Shown here: positions 84-56,359 of the stretch, piece after piece
Numbering within the stretch: position 1 is the first letter of the stretch
Layout of the letters: every line of letters begins with the position of its first letter
NCBI GenBank assembly: GCA_938084565.1
Contig: CALKEU010000001.1
Coordinates: 202,131 to 266,130, forward strand
Source: Candidatus Kapaibacterium sp.
GTDB lineage: Bacteria > Bacteroidota > Ignavibacteria > Kapaibacteriales > HRBIN21
Direction: 5' to 3'
Length of the DNA stretch: 64,000 bases
The notes under the pieces: generated by a model
What the model saw: the letters and a program-made list of their open reading frames with translations, nothing else
What the model was told of the DNA's origin: nothing
Databases searched by the model: none
Position numbers and translations under genes: made by a program

Positions 84-629
84 ATGCCAAGTCTTCCCCT
101 GCATGAGCAGACATGGTATGCCGCCGCCAGGGCCTACTACCTACTCCATTCATCTGTAAGCCCCTGTGACCAGGAGGAGGCCCAACGCTGGAGCCAGACT
201 CACCGGAGTCTCTACGACACGTTCATCACCTGCGTTGAAGAGGCTCACCGGCTGGCTTCGGCTGCTCTTCACTACGCCTGGGCGCCATATTCACGCTTCC
301 CGGTTGGAGCAGCACTCCTAGCCACCGACGGCAGTCTCTGGCAGGGCTGCAATGTAGAGTGCAGTAGCTTCGGCTTAACCCTCTGTGCCGAACGTGTTGC
401 CCTCGGACACGCCATCACGCACGGACGACGAGAGTTTGTGTTCTTAGCGCTCGTCACGGACACGGAAACCCCTCTCACCCCTTGTGGGGCGTGCCGTCAG
501 ATACTGTACGATTTCGCCCCCACCCTTCTCATCTCATCCCAAGGGGCTCGGGGGCAACGACGTGCCCTCTGGTGGCTCGACGAACTCCTACCCAGCCCGT
601 TTTCCGGCAAAGAGATCTGGAAACGTTAG
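84..629 (+). CDS. cdd: cytidine deaminase (with ~40-aa N-terminal extension)
   Basis: CDA zinc-binding motifs CAERVALGHAITHG and PCGACRQIL; also the AWAPYSRFPVGAALL core typical of tetrameric cytidine deaminases. Confidence 0.8.
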   Translation: MPSLPLHEQTWYAAARAYYLLHSSVSPCDQEEAQRWSQTHRSLYDTFITCVEEAHRLASAALHYAWAPYSRFPVGAALLATDGSLWQGCNVECSSFGLTLCAERVALGHAITHGRREFVFLALVTDTETPLTPCGACRQILYDFAPTLLISSQGARGQRRALWWLDELLPSPFSGKEIWKR

Positions 630-41204: not shown

Positions 41205-41399
41205 CTACTCTTCCGCTGCTGCCCTCCGCTGCCGCCGCTTAGCACGGATCATCTCTAGGCGACGCTCCTCCGACGGCTTCAAATACACCGAATGGCGTCG
41301 ATACTCGCGCAGCACCTTGCTCCGCTCATATTTTTTCTTGAAACGGCGCAGCGCTCGGTCAATCGATTCATTGGGCTGCACAATAATCCCAACTGCCAT
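41205..41399 (-). CDS. rpsU: 30S ribosomal protein S21
   Basis: RALRRFKKKYERSKVLREYRRHSVYLKPSEERR matches S21. Confidence 0.85.
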   Translation of the reverse strand: MAVGIIVQPNESIDRALRRFKKKYERSKVLREYRRHSVYLKPSEERRLEMIRAKRRQRRAAAEE

Positions 41400-41412: not shown

Positions 41413-41817
41413 TTACTGCAACCGCTCGATGAGCCGTTTTTCTTTGTTTTTCTTGAACAGCACCACAATGGCGTGCAAACCGTTGGAGAGCACTTCCTTG
41501 CTGCGTACAACCCCGTAGTCATCCCAGGCCGGATGGTAGATGACGTCGCCAACTTGATACTCGCCTTCTGGCTGGTAGCGCTTGGAATCTTCCGGGGTCA
41601 GCTGAACGACAGCGCCATCATTCCGCCCATTCCCCTCCAGAAGATCCAGATTGACCAGCTGCACATGATGGCTGACAACACATCGCGCCCACTGGTGACG
41701 CCCATTCGGCGTATCAATGGGAGTCCCGATGAACTCATGTCGGGTCACACGCATTAGGACTGGACAATACAGCATGACGTACTTGCGGACTCGCCGACGG
41801 CGTCGCGCTGTTGCCAT
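41413..41817 (-). CDS. hypothetical 134-aa protein, first gene after its own promoter and upstream of rpsU
   Basis: ORF with a Bacteroidetes -7 motif 34 nt upstream; Arg-rich N-terminus; no family recognised. Confidence 0.45.
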   Translation of the reverse strand: MATARRRRRVRKYVMLYCPVLMRVTRHEFIGTPIDTPNGRHQWARCVVSHHVQLVNLDLLEGNGRNDGAVVQLTPEDSKRYQPEGEYQVGDVIYHPAWDDYGVVRSKEVLSNGLHAIVVLFKKNKEKRLIERLQ

Positions 41818-41851
41818 CCTCGTCCCCCGACAGTTGAACGTGCTGTGATTG

Positions 41852-41859
41852 CAAAATTA
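41852..41859 (-). promoter_or_regulatory. Bacteroidetes-type -7 promoter element TAATTTTG
   Basis: Minus-strand GTAATTTTGCAATCACAGC about 34 nt upstream of the ATG of the 134-aa ORF. Confidence 0.45.
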
Positions 41860-41883
41860 CACTTTTTCCGGCGCCCCATCCCC

Positions 41884-42573
41884 TTAGGGCCGCACCCATA
41901 GGAGAGGCCTCCACCGTCCCTCCTCCCAGATGAACCCTACGTATACCCCAGAGGCTCCCCGCTCAGGCACTACGTCCCCAGCCCAGCAGAGCCGTCCCGT
42001 GAGGTCGTAGAGCACAATACGCCGGGCCAATGGGAGCCCTTCTCGACCTTCGGGGACCGATACTGGCCCAAAGCGGTACCAGACCGTGAGAACAAACTCT
42101 TCGAGGAACTCGTTGGTAATGACCCCCTGCTGTTGCTCTCCAAACGGAATCCGCACGAGCGTCCCGGTAATGCGATCACTCACTACGGCCGAGTCAACGT
42201 GCTCGGGCAAGGGGTGGTTCCACTGGAGCACGATTGTGCGTCCTCGCCCGCGTTGGACTACGAAACGGTATGCCACCGCGAAGGTATCCTGTCTCCGCAA
42301 TGGGCGAAAATCTACGTAGCTCCACTTCCACTCACCCTCAATGGAGTCGTAAAAGCGTAAGGCGGCATGGAAGATGTCCTGGGGCGGGTGGAAAGGTGGG
42401 ATTTCCCGCTCACCGAGTGCGGTATCGATCCCGTCGGTAGCTCGCTCATCTACCCCAACCACAAGTCGGATCCGCTCTCCTAATTCGTTCCCGACAGTAA
42501 AAGGGAGTTCGACGCGAAGCTGCGCCGCCGCAGTGCACACAATGCTAAGACTGATCACCGTATGCCGCCACAT
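41884..42573 (-). CDS. small T9SS-CTD secreted protein, paralogue of an internal module of the 1027-aa neighbour
   Basis: Signal peptide MWRHTVISLSIVCTAAAQ. It shares the motif VGVDERATDGIDTALGE with GLGIRATDGVDTLFGE in the 1027-aa protein. The C-terminus GVYVGFIWEEGRWRPLLWVRP is CTD-like. Confidence 0.55.
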   Translation of the reverse strand: MWRHTVISLSIVCTAAAQLRVELPFTVGNELGERIRLVVGVDERATDGIDTALGEREIPPFHPPQDIFHAALRFYDSIEGEWKWSYVDFRPLRRQDTFAVAYRFVVQRGRGRTIVLQWNHPLPEHVDSAVVSDRITGTLVRIPFGEQQQGVITNEFLEEFVLTVWYRFGPVSVPEGREGLPLARRIVLYDLTGRLCWAGDVVPERGASGVYVGFIWEEGRWRPLLWVRP

Positions 42574-42658
42574 TCCACCCACAGGTTGCCCACGGACAAC
42601 AAAACTGGGTGGTAGCCCTAGCGGACCACCACCCAGCACGTGAAGGCTTCAGCGTGTT

Positions 42659-45600
42659 TTAGCGGACCACTGAAACGGGCACCACAGTTCTTCGCTCGCC
42701 CGCTGCTGCCCGCAACAGATACCGTCCGCTCGACAGAGCTTCTACTGGGAGCAAGAATGTGTGCGAACCAGCGGCGAGCTCACCCTCGTACACTCGCATC
42801 ACCTCTTCACCCATCAGGTTGTAAAGTGTGAGCACAACCGGGGCTGCCTCTGGTACAACGAGTGTGACCGTTGCGCGCTCGAGCACCGGCTGCGGCCTCA
42901 CTTCAACCCGAAATTCAGTGCCTGCAGGAACACTCAGCAGCTGGACTGCCGTTACATTTGGATCTGTGATCTGCACCTGGTTCTGCCCACTGAGCGTTCC
43001 CCACACACGTCCGGAGGCATCAACAACGGTATACTCCGTTGCGCCACTCCCTAGGTGCAGAGTCACGGGGTACTGCACACCCTGGAATCGGATCACCGGC
43101 GAGGCGGCATCCTCCACGTAGGTCCCACTCCCGAAACGGACATCGAAGATTCCCTGTGGAGGCAGCGGTGGCAACTCGAACCGCTCCCGATCGATCGGCT
43201 GCTGACTGAGGTAGAGAATCGCCTCCCTCCCAGCCGCATCGCGCACGGCCACTGGGGCACTCTGCTGCACCACGTACTCCCGGTACTCGTCCCGATAGGC
43301 CGTCGCACGCGGCGTGCCAGGAGCCTCCAGCTTGAGGTAGCCCCTGCCCCGAATCTTGATCCAATACCCTAAGCCGGGGGTCAACTCTGAGACTTCCATG
43401 AAACCACGATCCGGCTCGTATTTGTACACACCCCCGACCCGCTGTGGTAGTGGCTCAGCACCATAGTTCTCGAACTGAATCCGCTCAATGCTTACAGGAA
43501 CCGATAGCCCACCGATAGTATTCCACCCATCGTAGAGCAGCACATTGTCGTTCCGGTCTATCCGAAGCAGACGAACACCCGCAATCTGGCGATCCACGGA
43601 ATCGCTATACTTGACGTAGTAGCCGTAGCCCACCTGGAGGTTTTCCGAGGCCTGATACTGGTTCTGCGAGAACCAGAAGGGGATATTGATAGCCCGCGGA
43701 TAGACCATCCGCCAGTGAGGATTCGCCGGCCGCACTGGCAGCGAGAGCAAGTTCCACCCTTTTCGGATGACAGGATACTGGACGACGAGCGGATACGTGT
43801 ACTCGATGACAAACGAGCGGATCCGGGCATCCGTGATCGTATAGGACATCCGCGTACCCCCTGCCGGGGTTGCCTGCCGCATATCGACACCAAAGATCAA
43901 GCCGTTGAGTGTATCTCGCAAGAAGAGGCGCGCCCCTGCTGGAAAATCTGTCGTATCCCACGTCAGTACCACGGGGTAATTCGGAGCCCCACCGGCATCG
44001 AAGCGGCACAGAAAGACCACGGTTGAATCGGAAAACACATTGCGAATGTCACGCGAAGCATAGATCCCTACCAAGTCCCGCAATCCATACGGCGCAGTAC
44101 CTGGCGGGACATTGGCTACCCCGTCGAGATACCAGCGCGCATAGAAGCTCCCCGCCACTGGCGGATTATCATACACCGTCTCTCCAAAGAGAGTGTCGAC
44201 TCCGTCTGTTGCGCGAATCCCCAACCCAAAGACCAGTGTTGCTGACTGTGGAATTGCAGCCGAGTTGCTCACCGTGATCCGGATTCCCCGGCCCAGGACC
44301 GCTAGATTACGGGGATCATTGTTCGGCTCCACAGGGTTCCGCACGTAGATAAATGTTACCCGCAAGCGCACCGGTGATACCGACGCAGAGAGGCTGCGGA
44401 ATGTAATGTAGCCAACGTAAATACCTGCCGCATCTATGTTCTGGGGCAACTCCTGCGGATCACAGAGAATTCGGAAATTCTGAGGACGTGACGGGGATTG
44501 TGGGTTGTTTTGGATGTCTTGGAGAATGGTCTCACCGAGCGTCCGATCGATGTAATCAATCACTCCCCGGCGTGTGATAGTCGGGATGGGGTTTCGGTCG
44601 CCGGGGCCAGCAGCAAAGGTCTGAAACTTAAGCCACCGTGCGTTAGACTCCACCACGATATCCGTCAATCGCGTACCCTCCACCTCGTTAGTTACCACTA
44701 ATTCCCGCCGTCCGAAGAAGACCCCTCGCGTCCACGAAGCCGAATCCAACACAATGGGATGAATGACTTCCCACTCATCGCCAGAGAGAGAAACTTGTCG
44801 AACAACTGCGTCAACCCCTATCCGTGGTTCAAAGCCCATCTGCGGAACACTCGTGACAAGGACGTAGATCATGCCCGGCATACTCGGATAGAGATTGGCA
44901 ATTGGCAGCAGACCGCGATTGTCAACCCCCTCTAATCCCTCATACGACACATTCCCGGAAGCCCCACCGGTACGATATGTTACAAAGTCCCGATACCGTG
45001 ATCCCACTGAATTAGCTGGGAAGGGTTCCGCAGGAAAAACGCTCAGGTTGAGATCGTTGTACTTCAGCGTGTCGTTGGAGAGTATCAACCGTGCAACCGA
45101 ACCCTCAGGCCCCGTTACCCGGAACCGTAAGTACACAACCGGAACATACTGCCGGTTATCACACTGAATAGTTGGATCCCACGGATCCTGTCCCAGTCCA
45201 GCAGGGCTCGGAGGCAGTGGTTTTGCAGAGCTAGCAACAATGCGGATTCGACGGGGATCGAAGACTGGGGGAACGCTCCCCAGGTTGTGCCATGCAACGA
45301 GTGCTCCTAACATATCCTGAGATGTGATCGCAACATCATCGAAGGCAAACGTGAAATCCTTTGCTAAAACGCTATCACCCGCTGGACTGACCTTTTGGAG
45401 CCCCAGAAACTCCAAGAAGCGCCCATCGTACTTGAGTTTGAATTCGAAACTGTAGATCGGCCACACCTGTCCCCACACAGGGTGGGTTGTAGGAACCCAA
45501 CAGTTTCGGATGTAGACTGGAACCAACAACTCCCGTGGCTGCCGTGGATCTGCTTGTTGAGGTACCACGATAAAGCCCGCAGGATAGACTTGCGCATCGT

Positions 45601-45742
45601 ACCCTGGGCCGCTGCCTGTCAAACTAAGCACCGGCAGTTTCACGTCGACCGTCTGTCCCCACAGCAGGGGGCTTCCGGCGAGGATAATACCTACAGCCAC
45701 TGTCCACAGAGATACCCACTGTCGCATTGCCTCTCTCCTCAC
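42659..45742 (-). CDS. large T9SS-secreted protein with N-terminal cohesin-like module
   Basis: Signal peptide, then a cohesin-like beta-sandwich pattern (LLVPVYIRN...IYSFEFKLKYDGRFLEFLGLQKVSPAGDSV). The C-terminus VLTLYNLMGEEVMRVYEGELAAGSHTFLLPVEALSSGRYLLRAAAGERRTVVPVSVVR is a T9SS CTD. Confidence 0.6.
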   Translation of the reverse strand: MRREAMRQWVSLWTVAVGIILAGSPLLWGQTVDVKLPVLSLTGSGPGYDAQVYPAGFIVVPQQADPRQPRELLVPVYIRNCWVPTTHPVWGQVWPIYSFEFKLKYDGRFLEFLGLQKVSPAGDSVLAKDFTFAFDDVAITSQDMLGALVAWHNLGSVPPVFDPRRIRIVASSAKPLPPSPAGLGQDPWDPTIQCDNRQYVPVVYLRFRVTGPEGSVARLILSNDTLKYNDLNLSVFPAEPFPANSVGSRYRDFVTYRTGGASGNVSYEGLEGVDNRGLLPIANLYPSMPGMIYVLVTSVPQMGFEPRIGVDAVVRQVSLSGDEWEVIHPIVLDSASWTRGVFFGRRELVVTNEVEGTRLTDIVVESNARWLKFQTFAAGPGDRNPIPTITRRGVIDYIDRTLGETILQDIQNNPQSPSRPQNFRILCDPQELPQNIDAAGIYVGYITFRSLSASVSPVRLRVTFIYVRNPVEPNNDPRNLAVLGRGIRITVSNSAAIPQSATLVFGLGIRATDGVDTLFGETVYDNPPVAGSFYARWYLDGVANVPPGTAPYGLRDLVGIYASRDIRNVFSDSTVVFLCRFDAGGAPNYPVVLTWDTTDFPAGARLFLRDTLNGLIFGVDMRQATPAGGTRMSYTITDARIRSFVIEYTYPLVVQYPVIRKGWNLLSLPVRPANPHWRMVYPRAINIPFWFSQNQYQASENLQVGYGYYVKYSDSVDRQIAGVRLLRIDRNDNVLLYDGWNTIGGLSVPVSIERIQFENYGAEPLPQRVGGVYKYEPDRGFMEVSELTPGLGYWIKIRGRGYLKLEAPGTPRATAYRDEYREYVVQQSAPVAVRDAAGREAILYLSQQPIDRERFELPPLPPQGIFDVRFGSGTYVEDAASPVIRFQGVQYPVTLHLGSGATEYTVVDASGRVWGTLSGQNQVQITDPNVTAVQLLSVPAGTEFRVEVRPQPVLERATVTLVVPEAAPVVLTLYNLMGEEVMRVYEGELAAGSHTFLLPVEALSSGRYLLRAAAGERRTVVPVSVVR

Positions 45743-45761
45743 GGAGCAAATTCAACAGACT

Positions 45762-46901
45762 TCATTCCACAATGAAGGCCACGGGGAGCTGTGCTCCCCC
45801 GATTCGTTGCCATCGTCCAACGTATATACCTGTAGGTAGCCCTTGAAGGGACACCTCGAACGGCTTCCCTTCGGCATGTACAGATCGCAGGAGCCTACCT
45901 AGGACATCGTAGAGCTCCAGCCGTTCGCCCGGCTCTAGGTACAACAGGCCAGAAGGATACACCATCACCCTCTGGCAACGCTCGCTGACGGCTGAAGGCT
46001 GCGATGGCGCAGCCATCACTACCAAACTATCTCCTATCCAACGAGTAAGGCAAGCACACGGATCCAGGGGATAAGACAGAAGACGAAGGGTGACCGTATC
46101 CGCCCACTGTATGCGGGCAGACAATTCCACGATAAGCTCGGACCTCTCCCGCTGGGAAGTCCATTTTATGCTCAGTGTGTCGCCACTGCGCTCCCACGTT
46201 TGCAACTCAACACCTTCGCCTACAGCAATATTCTCTACCTGTAGCCACGACGGCAGACCCGTTATGACTGTTGCCACCGAACGGAGTTCCAGAGCTGGAG
46301 GACAGCCCACTTGCACTACCCACAAACACGAGGTATCCGTCCCCACTAGGTTGCACTCCCGCGTCAGACTTTGCGTCCACAGAGTACGGTCAGGCGTGTC
46401 AACGATACGGGCATAGACGATTACAGGCGTTGTATCAACCTGCACCACCCGCCTCCGTTCGAACTCTTCGTTGAATTCCACATACTTCAGTTGAATGACA
46501 GCCGTATCAGGACACTCCCGACGATAATCTCCAAGGAAGGCCACCAACGGCTTCGCCCCAGAGATTCGTCGTGTGAGCGTGAATGCATATGCCCGAATCT
46601 CGCCATACAGCGCACTAAAGGCTCGCTGTTCCATTCCTTCTGCCAACGTACCGCTGACTAGCATCGTATGGAAGGCAAACTTCTCTGGATTGTACTGTAT
46701 GGCAAGATTGAAGCCCATCAAGCTGTCCGTTGGCTGTACTGGACTGATCTCAACGATCAAGATACACTCGCGTCTCCCGCACACATCTACCGTATCCCAG
46801 ACCCGCAGGGCAAGCCGTGCTGTCGTCTGGGCTATGAGCTGCCCCATGCCGCACAGAGCCATCACTATCCATGATGGTAAGCATGCCCTGCAGGACATCA
46901 T
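45762..46901 (-). CDS. T9SS-secreted protein with N-terminal cohesin-like module
   Basis: ALRVWDTVDVCGRRECILIVEISPVQPTDSLMGFNLAIQYNPEKFAF follows the cohesin pattern V.V.....G..V.V.I....V.....G..F.L...YDP..L. The C-terminal CTD is LELYDVLGRLLRSVHAEGKPFEVSLQGLPTGIYVGRW. Confidence 0.6.
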   Translation of the reverse strand: MMSCRACLPSWIVMALCGMGQLIAQTTARLALRVWDTVDVCGRRECILIVEISPVQPTDSLMGFNLAIQYNPEKFAFHTMLVSGTLAEGMEQRAFSALYGEIRAYAFTLTRRISGAKPLVAFLGDYRRECPDTAVIQLKYVEFNEEFERRRVVQVDTTPVIVYARIVDTPDRTLWTQSLTRECNLVGTDTSCLWVVQVGCPPALELRSVATVITGLPSWLQVENIAVGEGVELQTWERSGDTLSIKWTSQRERSELIVELSARIQWADTVTLRLLSYPLDPCACLTRWIGDSLVVMAAPSQPSAVSERCQRVMVYPSGLLYLEPGERLELYDVLGRLLRSVHAEGKPFEVSLQGLPTGIYVGRWQRIGGAQLPVAFIVE

Positions 46902-46907
46902 ACCCCA

Positions 46908-48788
46908 TTAACGCAGCACCACGATTGGTTCGAGCTCTCGGATACCTGTTGGACCTTCAATCCGGCACATATACATGCCCGGGCTGACCCGCTCGCCGAG
47001 CCCGTTCGTCCCATCCCACTCTACCTCGTAGGAACCGCTCGAATACTCCGCATCAGCAAGTGTCCGTACATAGCGGCCCATGGCGTCATAGAGGAGCACC
47101 CGATATCGCCCCGCCTCCGGTACATGGAGTCGGATGGCTGTCCGATCAATAACGGGGTTGGGGGCAACATGGCCTACCGTCGTCGGAGCTGCTGTGACAG
47201 CCAGCGGCACTACGAGCTCAGGCAGCTCTTCGTCATTCAAGCGGACATTGCTTACCCGCAGCTGAGCATCTTCTACGCGCAGCGTCACATACAGTATCGG
47301 CTCCCCCGCCTCACACTCTATCACACCCGCAATCGCCATACGCCCAGCGTCGTAGGCAACCGTCAGCCTGTCTGCAAAGCGCGGTGCAATCTCAACTCCA
47401 CTGATGACCCCATTGAATTGTACTCGAATACCCAGTGCTCCTGCCCAGGCTCCGTTGAGGGCGATGGGGAAGCGATATACTCCAGGAGCACTACTGTGCG
47501 GTTGCGCAATGTGGAGATTCGAGGCAATACCTGCAGCTGCTGCCCCCCGACCGTATGGTGGGAGTACTGTCAAATCCAGCAGCCACGGCAGATACGGCAC
47601 ACGGCCCGCCATGTAGAGCATGATGATGGCTGCATCATACTCCGTAGCCTCGAAAAAGAGAATAGGATCACCTCCAACATAGGGGAGCGAGTTATCCTGT
47701 GGGAGGTCCTGCCAGTAGTAGAGCGATCGTGTCGGTATAGCGCGTCGATGGTAGGCTGTATCAGCTGTATTGTTCCAGTTGCGTGTAGAGTAGTAGTAGC
47801 GCCCGTTGTGGTTGACGTCTCCATGGTATGCCTGGCGCCCTTTGAGGCTATCGAGACGCCGATCTGTTGCTACAGAGCGCAGGATGAGCATTACATCGTT
47901 CACTGTCACAAACCGGTCTTGTCCCATCCCGGTGTGCTTTCCCACTTGGGAGAAGTCTACATCTCCGTCGCCCCACCCTTCCAGGAAGAGCCGAGGGATG
48001 GCATTGAAGCGAATAACTGTATCACTTCCCCCCGAAGGTTGCCATGTGCTACTCAATACCGTAGAGGTAAGTGCCTGATTGACATCGCCAGTGAAGACCA
48101 AGCCATTCAGATAGTCACCAAATCCCCCCTTGATACCAATCGCTGCACCCTGTACCTGAACTGGTCCCCCCGAGGCCGTCAAACCGTAAGCAAACTCAAT
48201 ATCACCCTGGAAATTCCCCGGCCGCGAAGATTCATACAGCCACACTTGGAAACTGGCGATACTGGATGGCAACGACGGGTTGTTAATGTTCAAATCCCTC
48301 CACTCCACCACGAACGCCCGATTCGGGGCTGATCCCACCACTTTGTACGAGATCCGCGAAGGAACGTACCCCGGTTGAGTCGTCCGATAGTAATGGTCAC
48401 CCCAGAAGGGGGCAATGACGTTGAAAGGTTCAGAATTGACGAAGAGCCGCCCCGGAATATTCCCGCCCGTTAACGGAGGAGTCTCCCCGGTACGTAGCAA
48501 CAAGACGAATCCATTGACAGAGATTGCTAGTCTGCTGTACCGATAGCCCTGATACTCGAAGAGGAAAGGGAGTGCCACAATGGCGTAGCCGTCATTGTGA
48601 TCAGGGTTCCCGGTTGCTGGATCTACGAACTGGTCCGCATCCAGCACCGTTGCTCCCGCCAGCAAGGTAAAGGGTTTTCCTCCGACTTTGACAGCAGGCT
48701 GGAACTCGGCATAAACCTGGGATCTTGCGGCAATTGCACCGCTGAGCAGTAACGCCACAACACCCCCGATCAGCGTCAGCATTCTCAT
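46908..48788 (-). CDS. T9SS-secreted protein with dockerin-like Ca-binding loop motifs
   Basis: Signal peptide MRMLTLIGGVVALLLSGAIAARSQ (ATG at 48786-48788 preceded by GAGGAGA). It has two dockerin-like segments, GDGDVDFSQVG...VTVNDVMLILRSVA and GDVNHNGRYYYS...TADTAYHRRAI. The C-terminal CTD is YRVLLYDAMGRYVRTL...GMYMCRIEGPTGIRELEPIVVLR. Confidence 0.6.
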   Translation of the reverse strand: MRMLTLIGGVVALLLSGAIAARSQVYAEFQPAVKVGGKPFTLLAGATVLDADQFVDPATGNPDHNDGYAIVALPFLFEYQGYRYSRLAISVNGFVLLLRTGETPPLTGGNIPGRLFVNSEPFNVIAPFWGDHYYRTTQPGYVPSRISYKVVGSAPNRAFVVEWRDLNINNPSLPSSIASFQVWLYESSRPGNFQGDIEFAYGLTASGGPVQVQGAAIGIKGGFGDYLNGLVFTGDVNQALTSTVLSSTWQPSGGSDTVIRFNAIPRLFLEGWGDGDVDFSQVGKHTGMGQDRFVTVNDVMLILRSVATDRRLDSLKGRQAYHGDVNHNGRYYYSTRNWNNTADTAYHRRAIPTRSLYYWQDLPQDNSLPYVGGDPILFFEATEYDAAIIMLYMAGRVPYLPWLLDLTVLPPYGRGAAAAGIASNLHIAQPHSSAPGVYRFPIALNGAWAGALGIRVQFNGVISGVEIAPRFADRLTVAYDAGRMAIAGVIECEAGEPILYVTLRVEDAQLRVSNVRLNDEELPELVVPLAVTAAPTTVGHVAPNPVIDRTAIRLHVPEAGRYRVLLYDAMGRYVRTLADAEYSSGSYEVEWDGTNGLGERVSPGMYMCRIEGPTGIRELEPIVVLR

Positions 48789-48838
48789 CGTCTCCTCATC
48801 CGCGTGTGAGACCTGTTTGTTCTTGTCACACAAGGAGA

Positions 48839-48872
48839 GGGAGCTTTCCTGCCTGTCAGGCAGGAAGCTCCC
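48839..48872 (-). terminator. intergenic stem-loop (14-bp stem, 5-nt loop) 10 nt downstream of the 2208-aa gene stop; candidate intrinsic terminator/attenuator or RNA-stabilising hairpin
   Basis: GGGAGCTTTCCTGCC-TGTCA-GGCAGGAAGCTCCC forms a near-perfect inverted repeat with one bulged T. On the minus-strand transcript it is followed by CUCUCCUUGUGUG, which is only moderately U-rich. Confidence 0.45.
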
Positions 48873-48881
48873 CCACTCTTA

Positions 48882-51800
48882 TTACCGCACTAGGACCATT
48901 GGCTGGACGAGCACCACGTCGCCAGCAGTGATCCGGTAGTAGTACACACCACTGGGGACTTCTACACCGTTAGCGCTTCTTCCGTTCCACGGTACAATGT
49001 ACTCGTTAGCCGGGTAGAAGCCCTCCAGCAGCGTAGCAACCTGCGTACCGAGAGCATCGTACACTTCGAGCCGTATAGTAGCTGGCTCCGTCAGGCGGAA
49101 GCGAATCTGAGTTGTCTGCTCAAATGGATTAGGAGTATTTCCGAGCAGCTGCACTGGACCAGCCGCAGCAGCCACCGGCTCGGGCACATCGCTAATGAAG
49201 TCATACACGATCACAAAGTTCGTGACGGCGTCGGTGTAAATGACAACCGAAAGCGAGTCGCCATTCCGCTCTAGGGTCACTGTGGGCACCGAACGTCCTT
49301 CACCCGTGCGCATATTGAAGCTAAAGATGTTCCCGTTGGAGGCGCCGTCACGGATATACCACGTCGACCCAGCAGGGTTACGCGCGGCATCGTTCCGGTC
49401 AGGAACATCTTGAGCACTCCACGTGATGCGCACAGGATACGCATCAGAGGCATTGCCGGTGACACTTCCCGCCTGGAAGCGCCCTTTGTAGATCGATTGC
49501 CCTTCAACACCAGCAACCGCCCGCGGAAAGATATTCCGCACCGTTCCATTCGTAGAAGCAATACTCCACCGAGCGTCGAAGACGTCGTTGGGTGGGATCG
49601 GCGGCAGCTCGTACTCGCAGTAGTTGGAATCCAACTTCCCGACGCCACCACGGTTCGGATCATCACCGGTGGTTGCCAGCGGCGCTGTTCCCCATTCGAG
49701 TACCTGGAAGGCCCCGAAGCGATTGCTAATCCGCATTGGGACAATGAAGTCTGTCGGATCGGACACGTTCAGCTTGTAGGAGATCTCGTGTTGTGCTCCC
49801 TGCCGATCCACGACTCGAACGCGGACGGTAACCTTGCCATCGGGCCCTGGGGTGGCATTCAGAGCTGCCGTGCTAATCAAAACCTTGACTGTATCGGAGG
49901 ACTGGGGACCGCTAATTGTAGCCGGGCTAACCTGGAAGCCCGCAGGCTCGACCACCTCGATTGTCAGCTGCTCGAGGGCATCCGGCGGCTCCCGACGCAG
50001 GAGATCACGGTCGATCACCAGAATGCTATCCACATAGGGTTTCCCAAGCTCAACACATCTTACTGCCGGCAGCTGTGCCAGCCGTGGCGGATGGTTTACT
50101 GCCCGCACATTGAGGTCGAGCACCTTCACGTGTGTCAGTCCGTACTCGTCCGTAACCAGAACGGTTACCTTCTCTCGACGCGGCGCATCGTAGACCCCTG
50201 GAGTGCCAAAGAGAAGCCCGCTGACCGGATCGATCTGGAGCCACCGCGGGGTGGTCTTCTTGTCGCGCAGATCCCACGCACCCGCCTCGGGGAAGCATGG
50301 ATCGCGTGGGACAAAATCACGTGGATCGCCGGGATAAATCAGCTCAAATTGATGTGCCTGCCCAAAGTTCGGATCGTACACGACTATGCGACGACTCGAA
50401 TCCAGCAGCGTCGGATTGTAGTCCTGGTCCTCTATGGCATCCGGCAGCGTAGAGGTGAGGATGGTGGGAGCTACGTTGACGAGAACTCGCCGCGTTAGAT
50501 AGTTGACTCCACCATGGCCATCATTCACTACGATGGAGACAACCGTGTCGGTGTTGAGTGCCCCATGGTGTTGCATTGGGGGTGTCAGCAGTTGCCATGC
50601 AGTGGCAGAATCAATCCTCACATTGAGCTGCCCACGGAGGCTGAAGTCGATCGCTAATGGATCGGGCTGCCCACTGTTATCGTAGCGCCGTAGGTACTGG
50701 TTGCTCATCCACACCGGACGTACCTGCGTTGCAGGCTCAACGACTGTATCTGGCGGCACATCCCGCAGACTAATCGAGGCAAAGCCATAGGTTGTGCGCC
50801 CATAGCGGAAGTCCCATCCACGAGCACCAGCGTCAGCATCTTCGAGCTCGTCATCGGTATCGATGTCAACTTTAAAGCGGAGGCTATCAGTCAAGTTCGC
50901 AAGCCAAACACCGTTTCGTTCGCAGGCTACGTTGAAGCCTGTAAACTGCGGCGTACTGTCGATGACGAAGATCCGGAACTGGTACGTCACCGTCGTCGCC
51001 CCCGTGTTACCATAGTCCACGGTATCCTGCTGCAAGAACCGAGCATTGCTGCCGTCGTACGCTTGCGCATTGAAGTACGGCGGATAGAGGTAGATGTACT
51101 TTGCGATGACCTCCTCACTCAGCCCAGCAGCCTTCAGGGAGTCAACGGTTCGGGCGCTGGGCGGGAAGTTGCGGACAGCCACCGTGACGATTTCTCCACC
51201 GGGAACCACAAACGGGTTTGTCGGTCGGCCCTTGAGCACAACGTAGCCTCGCGCTCCATAGTACGGACCAAACGTTGCCGGGAGCGTATCGGCCTGGAGC
51301 CAGTAGGAAAGCCCCGAACCAGGTGCAACACTCCAGAAGTACGCAAGCTGCGGATACCGATCGGGGAACATGACCGACCGCGGGTCATAGAAGAGGTTCG
51401 GGTCTACCGCAGTAATGGTAAAGATGGAATCCCGCCCTGGCCCCGTCGGCTGACGCGGATAGCTTACATCCTCAGTCAGGAAGATCATATTCCGCAACTC
51501 CGGTGGCGTGATATTCTCCAACGCCACCTTGTTCCCCGTGAACACTGGCGGGTCAACTGTTGCTCCTACCTCAAAGATGAGTGCTCCATTGATTGCATCC
51601 GCAACCGTCCCCTGCCACAGAACTGTACGGGAAACAACGGCAACGACATCACCGACTCGTACCGGAAGCGCATTGTACCGTTCGCCGGCAAATACTGTAA
51701 CCTTCTGAGGGCTAATTGCCCCATCGGTGGGGAGAATACGATTGACATACCCAAAGCCGGGGCCCCCCAACTCATTGACAAAGCCCTCATATTTCCGCCC

Positions 51801-54800
51801 TTGCAAAGCCGCTAGATCCTCAATGTCCGGCCGCCTCTGGAGTGCAGCAAGAATTGCTCCCAAGTTCGTCCCAATGTTGGCCAGCCCCTCGATCGTGCGC
51901 CGATCGGTCGGGCGGCGGTTTACAGAATCGGGAACTAGCTCGACACGTGCACGGAAGACCTCGTTCGTTGCTCCTATCTGGCGCAGATTGACCCGGATGT
52001 AGTCACCCGTGCTGGTATTGATGACAAAGAAGACCGTCTCGTTGATCGCTCGCGGGTCATTGTTATTGAGCTCTGCTGACCCTGTGTAATTAGCACGGGC
52101 TTCAAGGAAGAGCGGATAGCCGATCGGATGTTTCGTGCCGCGGAATTCTGTCTGCAGGGCAGCAATGTTCGGGTCAGCCTCTGCATCGAAGGGATTCCGG
52201 GTCCACCGCCGGACGTACTTCCCGAAGGAAGGCAGCGTGGGATCATTATATGTCCGCAGGGTTTTGGGAATACCGACGGCGAAGTCCTCGATTGGCGACA
52301 TCCGCCGGTTGGAGTAGTCCGCCGTCTTGATATCGGTCCCTTTGTCGAAGATATCGTAGATGTGCCCCTGCATCAGCAACCGCTCAGGGATACTCGCTGG
52401 GTCAGGTGTATTCTCATCCCCTGCGTTCAAAACCGGGATCGGGATATAGGTGTAAAGGTGTCGCGACTCAAAGGGGCCCTGATTCTTCCCCGTACCTCCA
52501 CGCACGAAGCCAAGCTGTCGCGTGCCGTCCCCAGCGACAAAGAAGGTCTCCTGCGTACGCCCACTGACAGGCAAAATCGTCACCACGTTGGCTTCGGTCC
52601 GTCCCCAGTAATTGCCCCGGAGCGTATCGATCCCACCCATGCCAACGCCAGTCCCTGCTCGGCCTCCCTTCGTATCGGGATAGTCCGGCAGGCGGATGAG
52701 AAACCGCGCCGCGTTATCGTAGATAGAGTTTGCAGCCCAGTGATAGCTTGCGTACGGCAGCGGTCCCACTACGTCACCATATAGAATTGCCCCCGCCAGG
52801 TCACTCGAGGCGAGATTTGTCCCCTGCACCAATGGCCCTGTAATGGCATTCTGCTGGGCGCCTATGTCAGAGGTCGCCGTGTTGTTCGTAATCAGGCTTC
52901 GCGTAAAGACCAACTGCAGATTGTAATTGTCCGAGTAGATTGCCGCACCGGTATAGGCACGGTTACCCTGAATGCGCACTCGGTTGAAGAAGACAGAATC
53001 TGTCCGCCCTGCACGGCTAATACTCACCTCGTCGAGCACGTAAATAGCTCCACCGAGCCCTGTGCCGTTCTCCCGCAAGGTTGTCCCCGGGTGCTGACGC
53101 CGAATGTCTCCAATCTGCGTCGTCCCCGATCCCATCTGCGCCATGTTCGGGATAGCTTCATTGTCAAAGAAGCGAGTCAGCATCCGCACATCCGCCACCG
53201 GTGCTCCGGGCGTCCACGTAAAGATGTCATCTCGAGAGCTAAACCCAACAGCCACCCCGTTCGGGAGAACAGTGATGTTATCGACATCAGTCAAGAAGAA
53301 CCGATGCGAGGACGTCTGAGGATGCACGATACAGACGGCACCACCGTTGCCATTATAGGCCTTATTAGCCCTGAACTCAACTCCTTTGACGACATTGAGA
53401 TCAGCGTTGAGCGTGTAAACGGCCCCACCACCACGCACCTGCGCCTCGTAGCCTTGCTGAACCTGTCCAACGATGTTATTAGTAAATACCGCTCGCACGA
53501 GCCATATATACCGTTGCTCGACGGGCAAACAATTGGGCGGCGGGCAAGGCAGCTGAGCTGCGATAGCACCACCCGAAAAGCCAGCCTCATTGTTGTCAAA
53601 CTCCACCGGATAGTTCCCTCCGTAGAGGGACAGAGGCCCTACCGTACCACCAGCCCCATAGACGGTGAAGTTCTTCCCCGAGAAGATCGCCCCACCGTGC
53701 TCGACAGCACGGTTATTGCGGAACTTGATGTTGTAGCCATAGTTACGCGTGTCAATGAGGGCATCCGAACCACCGATGACGGGCGACGGTCGCGTATCCA
53801 CACCTGCAGCCGCGACATAGATAGCTCCTCCACGCCCCGCTTGGTTATCCACGAAGTACGTCTCCTGGCGTGCCTCGCCTCCCTGGCGTCCGCGCACCTG
53901 GAGCCGACCGGCATTGGTGCCCACATAAATTGCCCCACCATGGGACAGCGCACCAATCTGGGTCGGATCGGTGAAGAAGGGAACCTCAGCCCTATTGCTG
54001 ACGAAGCGTCCACGGACTGTCACCGAGGTCGCCCCACCAACGTAGAGTGCCCCACCGCGTGCCCCTCCAGTATTCGGGTTGTTTTGGAGATTCCTTGCGC
54101 TGTTGCCGTCGAAGAAGACGTAATCATACACGTTCGGAGCCTCGTAGTCGTTTATCCCCAACCCAATCTCTAGCGGGGTTCGCCCAGCGATGTAGACCGC
54201 TCCACCGTAAGCTTGATTCTTCCAGCTCTGAGGCTCTAGAGGAGCAGGGTTATTGAGGTCATCGACGATCGCCCACACACCTGGGGCAATCTGCCGTAGT
54301 TCAACGCTCGAAAGCAGTACGCGGTTCCCCGTAAAGCTCAAATACCGCACCCGCCCCAACAGCACTGCTAGACGAGCATCATCGTAAGCCTGACGATCGC
54401 TGTTGGTCAACGGTTCTGAAGCAGCACTGTAGACTTGATCGATGGCCTTGACTGCTTGGGATATCGGAACCGCGGTTGCATTGTCCGTTAGGTACGGATT
54501 GATAGGGCCGTAATCCGGCAAGGCTGAAATACCCGGTGTCGGGTAAACTCCCGTTCCGACAGGCGCCTGGAGTAACTGGAGCGCCCCTCCCCGGTATCGC
54601 GCCATGTTATTCCGGAACTCGCACAGCAGGAGCCATGTACGCGAGGAGAAGCTCGTGATGACCCCACCGCTGCCGTTAGTCTGCTGGATGAGCTGTGCAT
54701 TCAGGGCGGCAATAGCACCAGTGTTGGGTTGATAGATCGGGAAACGGTCCACCGTCGTATCCTTCCGGAAGTTCTCGAAGACTACGTTCCGGAAGAAGGC

Positions 54801-55466
54801 CGCCCGTGCTCCCGGCAGGATGATGATGTGCCCCCATTCTCGGGAAAAGTTGTTGACCGGACGCCCTCGGAAGGTAATTACACCCTGCGTCACATTGATG
54901 TTCCCGCCCCCCGCACGCCGCCACGGTGTTTGGTTGATATTCGGGTCAGAACCCGCAAAGGCCAGGCGCGCCGCGGCGTACATAATAGCCTTGCCCGGTG
55001 GCAGGTTCTGCAACCGCGGATCTGATCCGAGGTCCACCAAGAATATCTCTCCATACTTGCTTGGGTCAATCGTCGGATCCCCGACAATGGTACTTACAGC
55101 AGCAGCGCTGAAGTAGTTGAGGTCAGCATAGCCTGTGTAACCACATGGGTTGTTGGGATCCACCGGGTTGCAGCCACCAGGGAATTGGTTATAGGTTGCC
55201 GAGACGTATCCATCGGCGATGATGCGGCCGCCTACGGAGTCTATGAGGCGTCCGTTAGGCAGGAACTCCACAATGGTCCCGGGCTCAATGATGAGCGTCC
55301 CGGCAATCATGTATGTCCCGCTGATGCGGTATAGCGTATCCTTCAGGAAAATCCGGACCTCATTTGGGCCCAGACGCCCACTGACTTCCACAACGGGCAG
55401 CTGCGCACGGCTTACACCTGCAGCCAGGATCCCCACAAGAGCGACAAGGTGCAACCACCGCTTCAT
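48882..55466 (-). CDS. giant (about 2190-aa mature) T9SS-secreted parallel beta-helix protein with Pmp-type (GGAI / FxxN) repeats and cadherin/Ig-like domains
   Basis: Signal peptide MKRWLHLVALVGILAAGVSRAQ (ATG at 55464-55466, 4 nt after GGAGGAA). It has many GGA[IVL]Y/F..N repeats (HGGAIYVGTNAG, RGGAIYVAAAG, EHGGAIFSGKNF, FSGGAIAAQ, GLGGAIYVLDE). The C-terminal CTD is IRLEVYDALGTQVATLLEGFYPANEYIVPWNGRSANGVEVPSGVYYYRITAGDVVLVQPMVLVR. Confidence 0.7.
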   Translation of the reverse strand: MKRWLHLVALVGILAAGVSRAQLPVVEVSGRLGPNEVRIFLKDTLYRISGTYMIAGTLIIEPGTIVEFLPNGRLIDSVGGRIIADGYVSATYNQFPGGCNPVDPNNPCGYTGYADLNYFSAAAVSTIVGDPTIDPSKYGEIFLVDLGSDPRLQNLPPGKAIMYAAARLAFAGSDPNINQTPWRRAGGGNINVTQGVITFRGRPVNNFSREWGHIIILPGARAAFFRNVVFENFRKDTTVDRFPIYQPNTGAIAALNAQLIQQTNGSGGVITSFSSRTWLLLCEFRNNMARYRGGALQLLQAPVGTGVYPTPGISALPDYGPINPYLTDNATAVPISQAVKAIDQVYSAASEPLTNSDRQAYDDARLAVLLGRVRYLSFTGNRVLLSSVELRQIAPGVWAIVDDLNNPAPLEPQSWKNQAYGGAVYIAGRTPLEIGLGINDYEAPNVYDYVFFDGNSARNLQNNPNTGGARGGALYVGGATSVTVRGRFVSNRAEVPFFTDPTQIGALSHGGAIYVGTNAGRLQVRGRQGGEARQETYFVDNQAGRGGAIYVAAAGVDTRPSPVIGGSDALIDTRNYGYNIKFRNNRAVEHGGAIFSGKNFTVYGAGGTVGPLSLYGGNYPVEFDNNEAGFSGGAIAAQLPCPPPNCLPVEQRYIWLVRAVFTNNIVGQVQQGYEAQVRGGGAVYTLNADLNVVKGVEFRANKAYNGNGGAVCIVHPQTSSHRFFLTDVDNITVLPNGVAVGFSSRDDIFTWTPGAPVADVRMLTRFFDNEAIPNMAQMGSGTTQIGDIRRQHPGTTLRENGTGLGGAIYVLDEVSISRAGRTDSVFFNRVRIQGNRAYTGAAIYSDNYNLQLVFTRSLITNNTATSDIGAQQNAITGPLVQGTNLASSDLAGAILYGDVVGPLPYASYHWAANSIYDNAARFLIRLPDYPDTKGGRAGTGVGMGGIDTLRGNYWGRTEANVVTILPVSGRTQETFFVAGDGTRQLGFVRGGTGKNQGPFESRHLYTYIPIPVLNAGDENTPDPASIPERLLMQGHIYDIFDKGTDIKTADYSNRRMSPIEDFAVGIPKTLRTYNDPTLPSFGKYVRRWTRNPFDAEADPNIAALQTEFRGTKHPIGYPLFLEARANYTGSAELNNNDPRAINETVFFVINTSTGDYIRVNLRQIGATNEVFRARVELVPDSVNRRPTDRRTIEGLANIGTNLGAILAALQRRPDIEDLAALQGRKYEGFVNELGGPGFGYVNRILPTDGAISPQKVTVFAGERYNALPVRVGDVVAVVSRTVLWQGTVADAINGALIFEVGATVDPPVFTGNKVALENITPPELRNMIFLTEDVSYPRQPTGPGRDSIFTITAVDPNLFYDPRSVMFPDRYPQLAYFWSVAPGSGLSYWLQADTLPATFGPYYGARGYVVLKGRPTNPFVVPGGEIVTVAVRNFPPSARTVDSLKAAGLSEEVIAKYIYLYPPYFNAQAYDGSNARFLQQDTVDYGNTGATTVTYQFRIFVIDSTPQFTGFNVACERNGVWLANLTDSLRFKVDIDTDDELEDADAGARGWDFRYGRTTYGFASISLRDVPPDTVVEPATQVRPVWMSNQYLRRYDNSGQPDPLAIDFSLRGQLNVRIDSATAWQLLTPPMQHHGALNTDTVVSIVVNDGHGGVNYLTRRVLVNVAPTILTSTLPDAIEDQDYNPTLLDSSRRIVVYDPNFGQAHQFELIYPGDPRDFVPRDPCFPEAGAWDLRDKKTTPRWLQIDPVSGLLFGTPGVYDAPRREKVTVLVTDEYGLTHVKVLDLNVRAVNHPPRLAQLPAVRCVELGKPYVDSILVIDRDLLRREPPDALEQLTIEVVEPAGFQVSPATISGPQSSDTVKVLISTAALNATPGPDGKVTVRVRVVDRQGAQHEISYKLNVSDPTDFIVPMRISNRFGAFQVLEWGTAPLATTGDDPNRGGVGKLDSNYCEYELPPIPPNDVFDARWSIASTNGTVRNIFPRAVAGVEGQSIYKGRFQAGSVTGNASDAYPVRITWSAQDVPDRNDAARNPAGSTWYIRDGASNGNIFSFNMRTGEGRSVPTVTLERNGDSLSVVIYTDAVTNFVIVYDFISDVPEPVAAAAGPVQLLGNTPNPFEQTTQIRFRLTEPATIRLEVYDALGTQVATLLEGFYPANEYIVPWNGRSANGVEVPSGVYYYRITAGDVVLVQPMVLVR

Positions 55467-55537
55467 GATTCCTCCACCACCTAGAGACCACTTGTCAGAA
55501 GAGTGCATGAGTTCACCACAGCTTGGACGAACATATA

Positions 55538-56263
55538 CTATTCAACGGCTGTGCCAAGGCGAGCAAGGCCTGCTTTAGCCTCACCCGCAAAGTCCGAGAA
55601 TTCATTCTCCTGCAGCAGCTGGCGATATAGCTGCACTGCTTTCTGTGTATTCCCCGCCCGTTCGTAGCAATATGCCGCAAAGAAGCGATACCGCTCTGCT
55701 ATCCCGAGCGGAGCGCCAATAGTGGCAGCCCGCTCGTAGAGCTGGGCGGCTTCCGCCAACTTTCCTTCCTCTTCGGTGCACGCTGCCAATCCCGCATAGG
55801 CGCCAACGAGCACAAGAGGAGCCTTCGCTGTGGCTGCGCGTTCGAAGTACGGACGGGCCTTCGCGATCTCTCCCTGAAGCAGATACGCACTCCCAGCATA
55901 GAAGGCTGCTACTCGGCCTGCTTCCGTGCTGCCGTATTCCTGTACAATCTCTACCAGCCCACGGACTGGCTCATCGCGGATGGTCTTGGCTGTATCACCG
56001 TACAGAGCCCGCTCGTAGTCCCCATTATCGTAGTAGGTAACAACCCGTGCCAGCAGCGTGGCAGCTGTCTCGGCACGCTGCTTCTGGAGGATGTTCCAGT
56101 AGAGGACGCCTCCAATGGCCAGAAGGAGCACAACTGCGGCACCGATTACCTCACGTAGATGCGCTTGCAGCCACAGCTGAAACCGTTCGGCAAGCTTGGG
56201 TTGGAGCTCTATGCTGGCTTGCTGTTGCTCTTGCTCTGTTGTACGCACGGCTTCCTGGTCCAT
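55538..56263 (-). CDS. membrane-anchored TPR protein (YfgM-like)
   Basis: Cytoplasmic N-terminus, a single TM (VIGAAVVLLLAIGGVLYW), then periplasmic TPR-like helices. Confidence 0.55.
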   Translation of the reverse strand: MDQEAVRTTEQEQQQASIELQPKLAERFQLWLQAHLREVIGAAVVLLLAIGGVLYWNILQKQRAETAATLLARVVTYYDNGDYERALYGDTAKTIRDEPVRGLVEIVQEYGSTEAGRVAAFYAGSAYLLQGEIAKARPYFERAATAKAPLVLVGAYAGLAACTEEEGKLAEAAQLYERAATIGAPLGIAERYRFFAAYCYERAGNTQKAVQLYRQLLQENEFSDFAGEAKAGLARLGTAVE

Positions 56264-56285
56264 GCCTGCCTATCCCTGACCCTTG

Positions 56286-56359
56286 TGCGCCCGGAGGGGC
56301 TCGAACCCCCAACCTTTGGAACCGGAATCCAACGCTCTATCCAGTTGAGCTACGGGCGC
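56286..56359 (-). tRNA. tRNA-Arg (anticodon CCG)
   Basis: Minus-strand GCGCCCGTAGCTCAACTGGATAGAGCGTTGGATTCCGGTTCCAAAGGTTGGGGGTTCGAGCCCCTCCGGGCGCA folds as a 7-bp acceptor stem, D-arm GCTC/GAGC, anticodon stem TTGGA/TCCAA with loop TTCCGGT, and a T-arm GGGGG-TTCGAGC-CCCCT. CCA is not encoded. Confidence 0.85.

Follow-up and report, generated by a model that had tools for sequence, protein, structure and literature searches.

In a stretch of 64,000 nt from Candidatus Kapaibacterium sp. (GCA_938084565.1, contig CALKEU010000001.1, positions 202,131-266,130 of the forward strand; hereafter the window, to whose positions all coordinates refer) we identified a cluster of five consecutive genes, all on the minus strand, whose products belong to families with signal-peptide-like N-termini and the C-terminal domain (CTD) typical of type IX secretion system (T9SS) cargo. 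It is a real, lineage-wide T9SS cargo cluster that was previously undescribed, and two elements of the idea have precedents; no description of the five-gene cluster was found in the literature searched. We consider it plausible, at somewhat short of an even chance, that this cluster, found throughout Kapabacteria and Ignavibacteria, encodes five non-enzymatic cell-surface proteins that form one assembly. We infer export by the T9SS, attachment to the surface and physical association of the five proteins, the last from their co-conservation; a pairing of the cohesin-dockerin type is possible but unproven.

The five genes encode proteins of 2208 aa (48882-55508 as the maximal open reading frame (ORF), with a likely start at M15, position 55466), 641 aa (46908-48833; likely 624-626 aa from M16 or M18), 379 aa (45762-46901; 366 aa from M14), 1027 aa (42659-45742; 1022 aa from M6) and 229 aa (41884-42573, from the ATG at 42573), and the proteins are named below by these lengths. 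Directly upstream lies the gene of a YfgM-like TPR protein of 241 aa (55538-56263, minus strand), which matched Pfam TPR_21 with 29.9 bits as well as other TPR families. The original prediction described a block of six consecutive, co-directional minus-strand ORFs between this TPR gene, next to a tRNA-Arg, and rpsU. The positions of the six ORFs, which span 41413-55508, and of the flanking genes were confirmed, and the C-terminal sequence that had been cited is the C-terminus of the 2208-aa protein. Gaps between the genes had been put at 7-67 nt; the maximal ORFs leave 6-66 nt, and the likely true starts widen this to 34-99 nt.

The conservation of the block was examined in a sample of one genome per species, in which 217 species genomes held a relative of the 641-aa protein; the best 80 of these 217 were fetched, and the counts rest on those of the 80 species-level loci that were long enough to show gene order. 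A lack of conservation in relatives would have counted against the original prediction, and the block proved far more strongly conserved than that prediction could know: the order TPR, 2208, 641, 379, 1027, 229 was kept in essentially every such locus, each with one complete five-gene set and with the TPR gene directly upstream of the 2208 orthologue. In close and distant metagenome-assembled genomes (MAGs) the arrangement was an E1 dehydrogenase gene, the TPR gene and then genes for proteins of ~2200-2500, ~620-930, ~310-410, ~1020-1070 and ~235-270 aa, the distant loci coming from Bacteroidota, Ignavibacteriae and Kapabacteria MAGs. BLASTP confirmed orthology for every member, with identities to the related loci L006-L008 of 44-54% (2208), 36-46% (TPR), 35-44% (641), 31-40% (1027), 28-31% (229) and 22-23% (379). 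The TPR protein retained 36-69% identity across the lineage, and the 379 family went down to 16-24% at class-level divergence with the gene order still strict. Downstream of the 229 gene, the gene of the 134-aa protein and rpsU were found in the closest relatives only, and Pyr_redox_2 or GT2 genes elsewhere. Since these neighbours differ between lineages, the boundary of conservation lies directly after the 229 gene and, as judged from gene order, the conserved unit is made up of the five cargo genes and the upstream TPR gene.

The labels of the best 80 genomes were Kapabacteria, Ignavibacteria or "Chlorobiota" throughout, except for a number of implausible record titles. Many TPA MAGs that carry the block are entitled "uncultured Hyphomicrobiales bacterium", one is titled Desulfobulbaceae and one Didemnitutus (L027, L031, L033 and other loci); these titles are probably taxonomic mislabels. 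A second copy of the block in the MAG KatS3mg039 (L030, BPHJ01000001.1) was rejected as a duplication, its proteins being 100% identical to those of KatS3mg040 (L021, BPHK01000001.1), and the contig is probably chimeric.

Identity to the related locus L004 was 89% for the 2208-aa protein, 84% for 1027, 76% for 641, 69% for TPR, 67% for 229 and 51% for 379, the fastest-evolving member of the block, and the same ranking was obtained with a second genome pair (90, 82, 82, 70, 55 and 45%). For neighbouring genes the identities to L004 were 67% (OMP decarboxylase), 68% (DUF2851), 71% (GT2) and 82% (M48 peptidase). These values bear on the possibility that the five products are T9SS-secreted adhesins or surface proteins that form no complex, each acting alone, for instance in adhesion to a substrate or to other cells, and that their genes lie together for reasons of history or regulation. 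Stand-alone CTD proteins with Ig, FN3 or beta-helix domains are very common T9SS cargo, the synteny of the lineage also takes in housekeeping neighbours, and the cohesin and dockerin signals described below are sub-threshold. Adhesins normally evolve fast, yet the 2208- and 1027-aa proteins are more conserved than the neighbouring enzymes (67-82%), and the strict order of the five genes, with one complete set per locus, is maintained over class-level divergence while the downstream neighbours change. Five proteins acting independently are a serious though doubtful alternative to a common assembly.

The 2208-aa protein consists of a signal peptide, a PMP-repeat beta-helix, a long unannotated core, a He_PIG Ig domain, a module shared with two other block members (module X, see below) and a type-A CTD. 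Its Chlam_PMP repeats scored 53.9 bits against a cut-off of 20.6 bits, in agreement with the Pmp-repeat beta-helix proposed originally, and a He_PIG match was also obtained. An alignment of 21 orthologues from 21 species contained hundreds of invariant columns, with invariant charged residues including E210, H213, K235 and D236, as well as an N-Y-W-G motif at 952-955. This conservation, unlike that of typical fast-evolving adhesins, indicates that structure or function constrains the giant protein strongly. Parallel beta-helix proteins are in many cases polysaccharide lyases or hydrolases, and the extreme conservation and the many invariant charged residues resemble the constraint on an enzyme more than that on an adhesin; the giant might accordingly be a cryptic carbohydrate-active or other enzyme, with the other four proteins as substrate-binding or positioning accessories of a surface machine for polymer processing. 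We regard this as quite improbable, given that PMP repeats are typical of adhesins, that no sugar transporter or SusC/D genes were found nearby in the scanned window, and that the protein matched no catalytic family in Pfam, NCBIfam or the PDB. PDB searches with the 2208-aa protein returned CTD/FlgD-like matches only. More generally, scans with Pfam and NCBIfam detected no catalytic, transporter or regulator domains in the block proteins, which bears out the earlier description of a co-directional T9SS-CTD cargo block devoid of recognisable enzymes, transporters and regulators.

The CTDs were assessed with TIGR04183 (curated cut-off 23 bits), FlgD_ig (cut-off 27 bits) and PF18962. In the window, the TIGR04183 cut-off was exceeded by the 2208-aa protein (27.0 bits; FlgD_ig 29.9) and the 1027-aa protein (24.1 bits). 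The 641-aa protein came near it (21.2 bits; FlgD_ig 30.9) and the 379-aa protein gave a weak score of 16.3 bits, while the 229-aa protein matched neither a CTD model nor any other Pfam or NCBIfam family. Among orthologues, PF18962 was found in 52/59 members of the 641 family, 19/21 of the 1027 family, 14/21 of the 229 family (best E 6e-12) and 12/20 of the 379 family. On the strength of these profile matches a CTD is assigned to all five families, clear in three of the window proteins and degenerate in 379 and 229. The original claim of a CTD on five proteins therefore stands at the family level, with only 2208 and 1027 passing the cut-off in the window. The domains lie at residues 2125-2208 of 2208 (nt 48885-49136), 554-641 of 641 (nt 46911-47174) and 950-1027 of 1027 (nt 42662-42895), the degenerate CTD of 379 at residues 310-379, and that of 229 is short. 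Many further Por_Secre_tail proteins are encoded by relatives, and T9SS cargo is known in Ignavibacteria from M. roseus, whose carbohydrate-active enzymes carry a Por sorting domain (PMC3534657).

Signal peptides were judged heuristically from the best hydrophobicity over 10 aa and from a Gln following the hydrophobic region. All five families have signal-peptide-like N-termini (median best 10-aa hydrophobicity 2.8-3.0), and the Gln was present in most orthologues of each. In the window the N-termini read SRA/QLP, ARS/QVY, LIA/QTT, LWG/QTV and AAA/QLR, where the slashes mark the cleavage points as we read them. The pattern agrees with the "Q-rule" for signal peptidase I substrates in Bacteroidetes (PMC5837995). 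Of the signal peptides originally ascribed to six proteins, those of the five families were thus supported and that of the 134-aa product (1.8) was not.

The 379-aa protein is made up of a signal peptide, a cohesin-fold module (residues ~26-165; nt 46407-46826), a second beta-sandwich (residues ~173-298) and the degenerate CTD, and its family comprises 12 clusters of 41-99% identity from Kapabacteria and Bacteroidota MAGs. A look-up of its exact sequence gave no match, and a near-identical protein, P0001, led to a contig like that of the window. An AF2 model of the protein (pLDDT 74) shows three beta-sandwich domains, and in this model the N-terminal module has the cohesin fold, a nine-stranded jelly-roll beta-sandwich of the cohesin type. 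For the 1027-aa protein, in which a cohesin-like module had likewise been proposed, the domain order is a signal peptide, a possibly cohesin-like N-terminal module (residues 30-235; nt 45038-45655), an unannotated region, module X, a region of GWNxxSLP repeats, a partial module-X motif at ~853 and the CTD. The best PDB match to the profile of the N-terminal family was a cohesin (4dh2_A) at E 0.043, and Pfam Cohesin was the only family to recur on these N-termini, sub-threshold in 6/15 with a best E of 0.032; the N-termini of 379 and 1027 gave only 22% in a profile-profile comparison with hhalign. The cohesin assignment of the 1027 N-terminus is accordingly weak, resting on these profile matches. 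Pfam Cohesin (PF00963) did not match the window proteins even at E<=10. The C-terminal part of the 641-aa protein contains a cohesin+FN3-like pair of domains, its sandwich providing a cohesin-like fold in a second member of the block. BLASTP returned short motifs only, whether 379 was compared with 1027 or 229 with 1027 and 2208, and profile-profile comparison was required. No relation was found by hhalign among the middle domain of 379, the C-terminal sandwich of 641 and module X, and PDB sequence searches with 1027 and with the profiles A1, A2, A7 and A8 gave CTD/FlgD-like matches only. Residues 660-800 of the 1027-aa protein (45742 to ~43700, minus strand) contain the invariant repeats GWN(L/T)(L/I)(S/G)LP and GYW(I/V)K, and the repeat region in the C-terminal half is unannotated and matches nothing in the PDB or Pfam.

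The 641-aa protein, whose family holds at least 380 clusters, is composed of a signal peptide, a NIDO-like beta domain (residues 45-280), a helical module (residues 283-435; nt 47529-47987), the cohesin-like beta-sandwich (residues 440-545; nt 47199-47516) and the CTD. The helical module is of a calcium-binding type with dockerin-like motifs. Invariant in it are W-G-D-G-D-x-D, D313, D339-V-x-H-x-G-R and D400, and the motif WGDGDxD...VTVND is followed by a helix at 311-323, GDVNHNGR...EYDAA by a helix at 398-408; a third, short helix lies between these two at 334-338. The module can be read from these motifs as a dockerin whose two calcium loops are each interrupted, one by ~15 inserted residues and the other by ~55, which include a beta-hairpin. 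The top two of the 177,635 PDB sequences for its profile were ScaB dockerins, at E 0.77-0.87, with EYDAALIxxYxxGRxPxLP aligned against SIDAVLIRDYVLGKINEFP. Dockerin_1 appeared on 2/13 isolated mid-domains at E>=0.4, and hhalign against three dockerin sequences gave 5-6%. The original prediction noted dockerin-like motifs in this protein and named a profile search as a check; Dockerin_1 (PF00404) was found on 0/59 full-length family members and gave no match on the window proteins even at E<=10, and we describe residues 283-435, on their motifs and predicted helices, as a helical module of the calcium-binding type with dockerin-like motifs and not as a demonstrated dockerin. Dockerin_1 does occur on proteins with a T9SS CTD, as seen in the module-X protein P0154 (27.7 bits).

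A classical cellulosome-like system, in which 379 and 1027 would serve with their cohesins as the scaffoldin for dockerin-bearing enzymes encoded elsewhere in the genome, has in its favour the cohesin fold of 379, the existence of true dockerin-plus-CTD proteins such as P0154 in related protein space, and a precedent in Cloacimonadota (PMC8542988). Each of the proteins concerned has a single cohesin-like module with no tandem arrays, the Pfam Cohesin scores stay below threshold, there are no enzymes in or beside the block, and the cellulases of M. roseus carry neither dockerin nor scaffoldin domains according to its genome paper (PMC3534657). Taken together, such a system seems very unlikely, the least probable of the explanations considered.

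The 229-aa protein consists of a signal peptide, module X (nt 42040-42516) and the short degenerate CTD. Module X, a domain of ~150-190 aa that matches no Pfam family, is also found at residues 488-655 of 1027 (nt 43778-44281) and residues ~1920-2110 of 2208 (nt 49179-49751). The relation of 229 to an internal module of 1027, as originally noticed, was borne out by hhalign (98.7%, E 2.6e-16 against residues ~488-655) and extends to 2208 (98.0%), with 1027 against 2208 at 99.3%. A profile of the three window copies retrieved 1,276 representative proteins at E<=1e-3, ranging from 130 to 2,992 aa and with up to six matched stretches. Por_Secre_tail was present on 9/10 sampled proteins of diverse architectures, one of which carries a bona fide Dockerin_1. 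By this distribution module X, a domain so far without a name, is widespread among T9SS cargo and not specific to the block; its candidacy as a block-specific interaction domain was rejected on finding it in so many architectures in the library-wide search, and because it is generic it is not evidence for mutual binding. That 9/10 of these unrelated proteins carry a CTD also lends some weight to the view of the five cluster products as independent surface proteins.

The original prediction treated the block as a single operon. The genes are co-directional, but two of the gaps, taken with the likely true starts, contain strong conserved hairpins, one of which is a terminator. By pattern scan, the hairpin at 42604-42637 (minus strand) resembles an intrinsic terminator, with a GC-rich stem of 15 bp and a tetraloop followed by UUUUGUUGU, and its place is in the gap that separates the 1027 stop from the start of 229 at 42573. 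The fold of the 85-nt stretch holding it has a minimum free energy (MFE) of -39.9 kcal/mol (z -2.67). Terminator-like hairpins of differing sequence follow the 1027 orthologue in 58/69 loci, as against 1-3 after the TPR, 379 or 229 genes, and in related loci none of these three genes is followed by a strong hairpin. A GTG ORF of 251 aa (41884-42639) is an over-extension of the 229 gene, since it runs through this terminator. The second hairpin is a strong intercistronic stem-loop directly after the 2208 stop (48837-48874, minus strand) with a weak U tract; the 116-nt stretch containing it folds with an MFE of -44.2 kcal/mol (z -3.35). An equivalent hairpin follows the 2208 stop of relatives, with a median of -23 kcal/mol over 75 loci and a U tract in 21 of these, and in relatives strong stem-loops, mostly lacking a U tract, also follow the 641 stop. 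Because a lineage-conserved terminator follows the 1027 gene, the block is probably transcribed in a subdivided or attenuated fashion and not as one simple operon, to judge from these predicted structures. The stem-loops after 2208 and 641 may control mRNA stability or subunit stoichiometry, and that after 2208 is also a candidate attenuation element. A scan for sigma-70 promoters was uninformative (10 found against 8 expected), Bacteroidota-type promoters not being covered by the scan.

The hairpins are compatible with a tuning of subunit stoichiometry, which speaks for a T9SS-dependent coat resembling an S-layer, as built by adjacent CTD genes in Tannerella (TfsA/TfsB; PMC4175972), with the giant and the 1027-aa protein as its lattice subunits and the small proteins as anchors or caps. 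The block looks constitutive, with housekeeping surroundings, one full set per locus and strong sequence conservation. A beta-helix of 2,200 residues is more like a fibre or an adhesin than a lattice subunit, and the sequences resemble neither TfsA/TfsB nor S-layer proteins of any other kind, PDB profile searches returning CTD-like matches only. Cultured Ignavibacteria are not known to have an S-layer. A coat of this kind is in our view improbable.

The 134-aa ORF (41413-41817, minus strand) had been counted as a secreted member of the block, a view that is not supported. It starts with MATARRRRRVRKYVMLYCPVLMRV, an Arg-rich N-terminus showing no signal peptide by the criteria above (best 10-aa hydrophobicity 1.8 against ~2.8-3.0 in the five families), and it matched nothing in Pfam, NCBIfam or the PDB. 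It is 96% identical to its counterpart in L004, and stands next to the block only in the closest relatives, being missing from that position in distant ones. Elsewhere in Kapabacteria its homologues are found immediately upstream of rpsU and beside unrelated upstream genes (L089, 8001-8654; L090, 8001-8649). The product looks cytoplasmic and, from its genomic context, is best described as a conserved partner of rpsU outside the cargo unit. The gene of ribosomal protein S21 itself (rpsU, 64 aa, 41205-41399, minus strand) was read from the sequence; it starts 13 nt downstream of the 134-aa ORF and marks the boundary outside the unit, and PF01165 was found on its orthologue in the related loci L001 and L003-L005. 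A GT2-TPR gene also lies downstream with rpsU, and the upstream flank carries a tRNA-Arg(CCG) at 56285-56359 and an E1 dehydrogenase gene. The remainder of the scanned window consists of ordinary housekeeping genes, and GC content stays at ~0.55-0.61 all along, the block showing no break in composition. At 626-3799 (minus strand) the window also encodes a large, possibly extracytoplasmic protein of 1057 aa with an N-terminal DUF7948 and C-terminal Ig domains.

On the reading that we prefer, that of a common surface assembly, each of the five proteins would cross the inner membrane by the Sec pathway, directed by its signal-peptide-like N-terminus and the Gln behind it, and would fold in the periplasm. 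Recognition of the type-A CTD would then take it across the outer membrane through the T9SS and, on the model of T9SS cargo already characterised, it would lose this domain and become attached to the cell surface. There the five proteins would most likely form one constitutive assembly, built mainly on the slowly evolving PMP-repeat beta-helix protein of 2,200 residues. The remaining four would serve as accessory subunits and be kept in place in part by the cohesin-fold beta-sandwiches of 379, 641 and possibly 1027 and by the invariant calcium-binding-type helical module of 641. The YfgM-like TPR protein may assist the passage through the periplasm as a possible chaperone or partner; alternatively, its synteny may merely be conserved.

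Several observations weigh against a common assembly. None of the T9SS machinery genes (PorK/L/M/N, SprA/Sov, PorV, PorU) was recognised among the scanned ORFs of the window. In this genome the 379- and 229-aa proteins have degenerate CTDs, the terminator behind the 1027 gene divides the block, and module X is shared with T9SS cargo at large. Synteny extends upstream into housekeeping genes, namely those of the E1 dehydrogenase and the TPR protein, so that general collinearity could account for part of the conserved order. To these are added the long insertions in the putative calcium loops of 641, its low hhalign values against dockerins, and the failure of both Pfam Cohesin and Dockerin_1 to reach their curated thresholds.

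The more specific proposal that all Kapabacteria and Ignavibacteria carry a dedicated, slowly evolving, T9SS-exported surface nanostructure of five subunits, locked together by a divergent pair of a cohesin and a split-loop dockerin that current models miss, we consider unlikely. If it were true, cohesin-dockerin assemblies would have a non-enzymatic, T9SS-anchored equivalent in Gram-negative cells, one with a core role in the envelope of the lineage. Should the five proteins form one structure in the broader sense, this would amount to an important, so far unstudied part of the envelope of an entire class-level lineage common in hot springs, sediments and bioreactors, and to a case of cohesin-type modules at work in a T9SS-anchored, non-enzymatic setting, their sequences having diverged beyond the reach of current Pfam models. 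For a surface protein of 2,200 residues, slow evolution is in itself unusual and indicates a strong internal constraint. Module X is a candidate new family that could be added to domain databases, with ~1,300 protein clusters, mostly T9SS cargo. Practical value will stay modest until work is done on a relative in culture.

The novelty attributed to a T9SS-coupled cohesin/dockerin operon in the original prediction was overstated, as precedents exist both in Cloacimonadota and in Tannerella. The adjacent T9SS cargo genes tfsA and tfsB build the surface layer of Tannerella (PMC4175972), and as in these and other T9SS cargo the block has adjacent genes for products with a Sec signal peptide and a C-terminal Por_Secre_tail/TIGR04183 domain of ~70-90 aa; by analogy, a surface-attached, non-enzymatic structural role is plausible for it too. 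Unlike tfsA-tfsB, the block encodes five proteins and not two, shares no similarity with them outside the CTD and has two degenerate CTDs. It belongs to Kapabacteria and Ignavibacteria and not to Bacteroidia, and its secretion and attachment are predicted from the genes. Cohesin-dockerin assemblies are known from cellulosomes and, outside these, from modules of Clostridium perfringens GH84 and Archaeoglobus fulgidus, among others; for Cloacimonadota a cohesin scaffoldin anchored by a CTD, together with enzymes that bear dockerins, has been inferred (PMC8542988). The block resembles these in the invariant acidic loops of 641 that are followed by amphipathic helices, and the Ca. Stygibacter proposal in the use of a CTD as the surface anchor. 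It differs in having no enzymes and no tandem cohesin arrays, in staying below the thresholds of Pfam Cohesin and Dockerin_1, in the ~15-aa and ~55-aa insertions within the loops of its putative dockerin, and in having all the putative partners encoded side by side and kept as a set.

The N-terminal third of the 2208-aa protein has repeats of the GGA(I/L/V)/FxxN type, which predict a right-handed beta-helix as in chlamydial Pmp proteins. Pmp proteins are exported through a type V autotransporter beta-barrel and are polymorphic, whereas the 2208-aa protein has a T9SS CTD, is much longer, contains an unannotated core of ~1,000 residues and evolves slowly. The combination of a giant repetitive T9SS surface protein with smaller accessory genes is also known from the gliding adhesin loci of Flavobacterium (sprC-sprD-sprB, remA). 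No homology to these was detected and no gld or spr genes lie near the block, and the cultured Ignavibacteria are described, in part in PMC3534657, as flagellated or non-motile and not as gliding. The two systems differ further in their sorting signals, SprB of Flavobacterium having a type-B CTD and a dedicated SprF-like partner and the block a CTD of type A.

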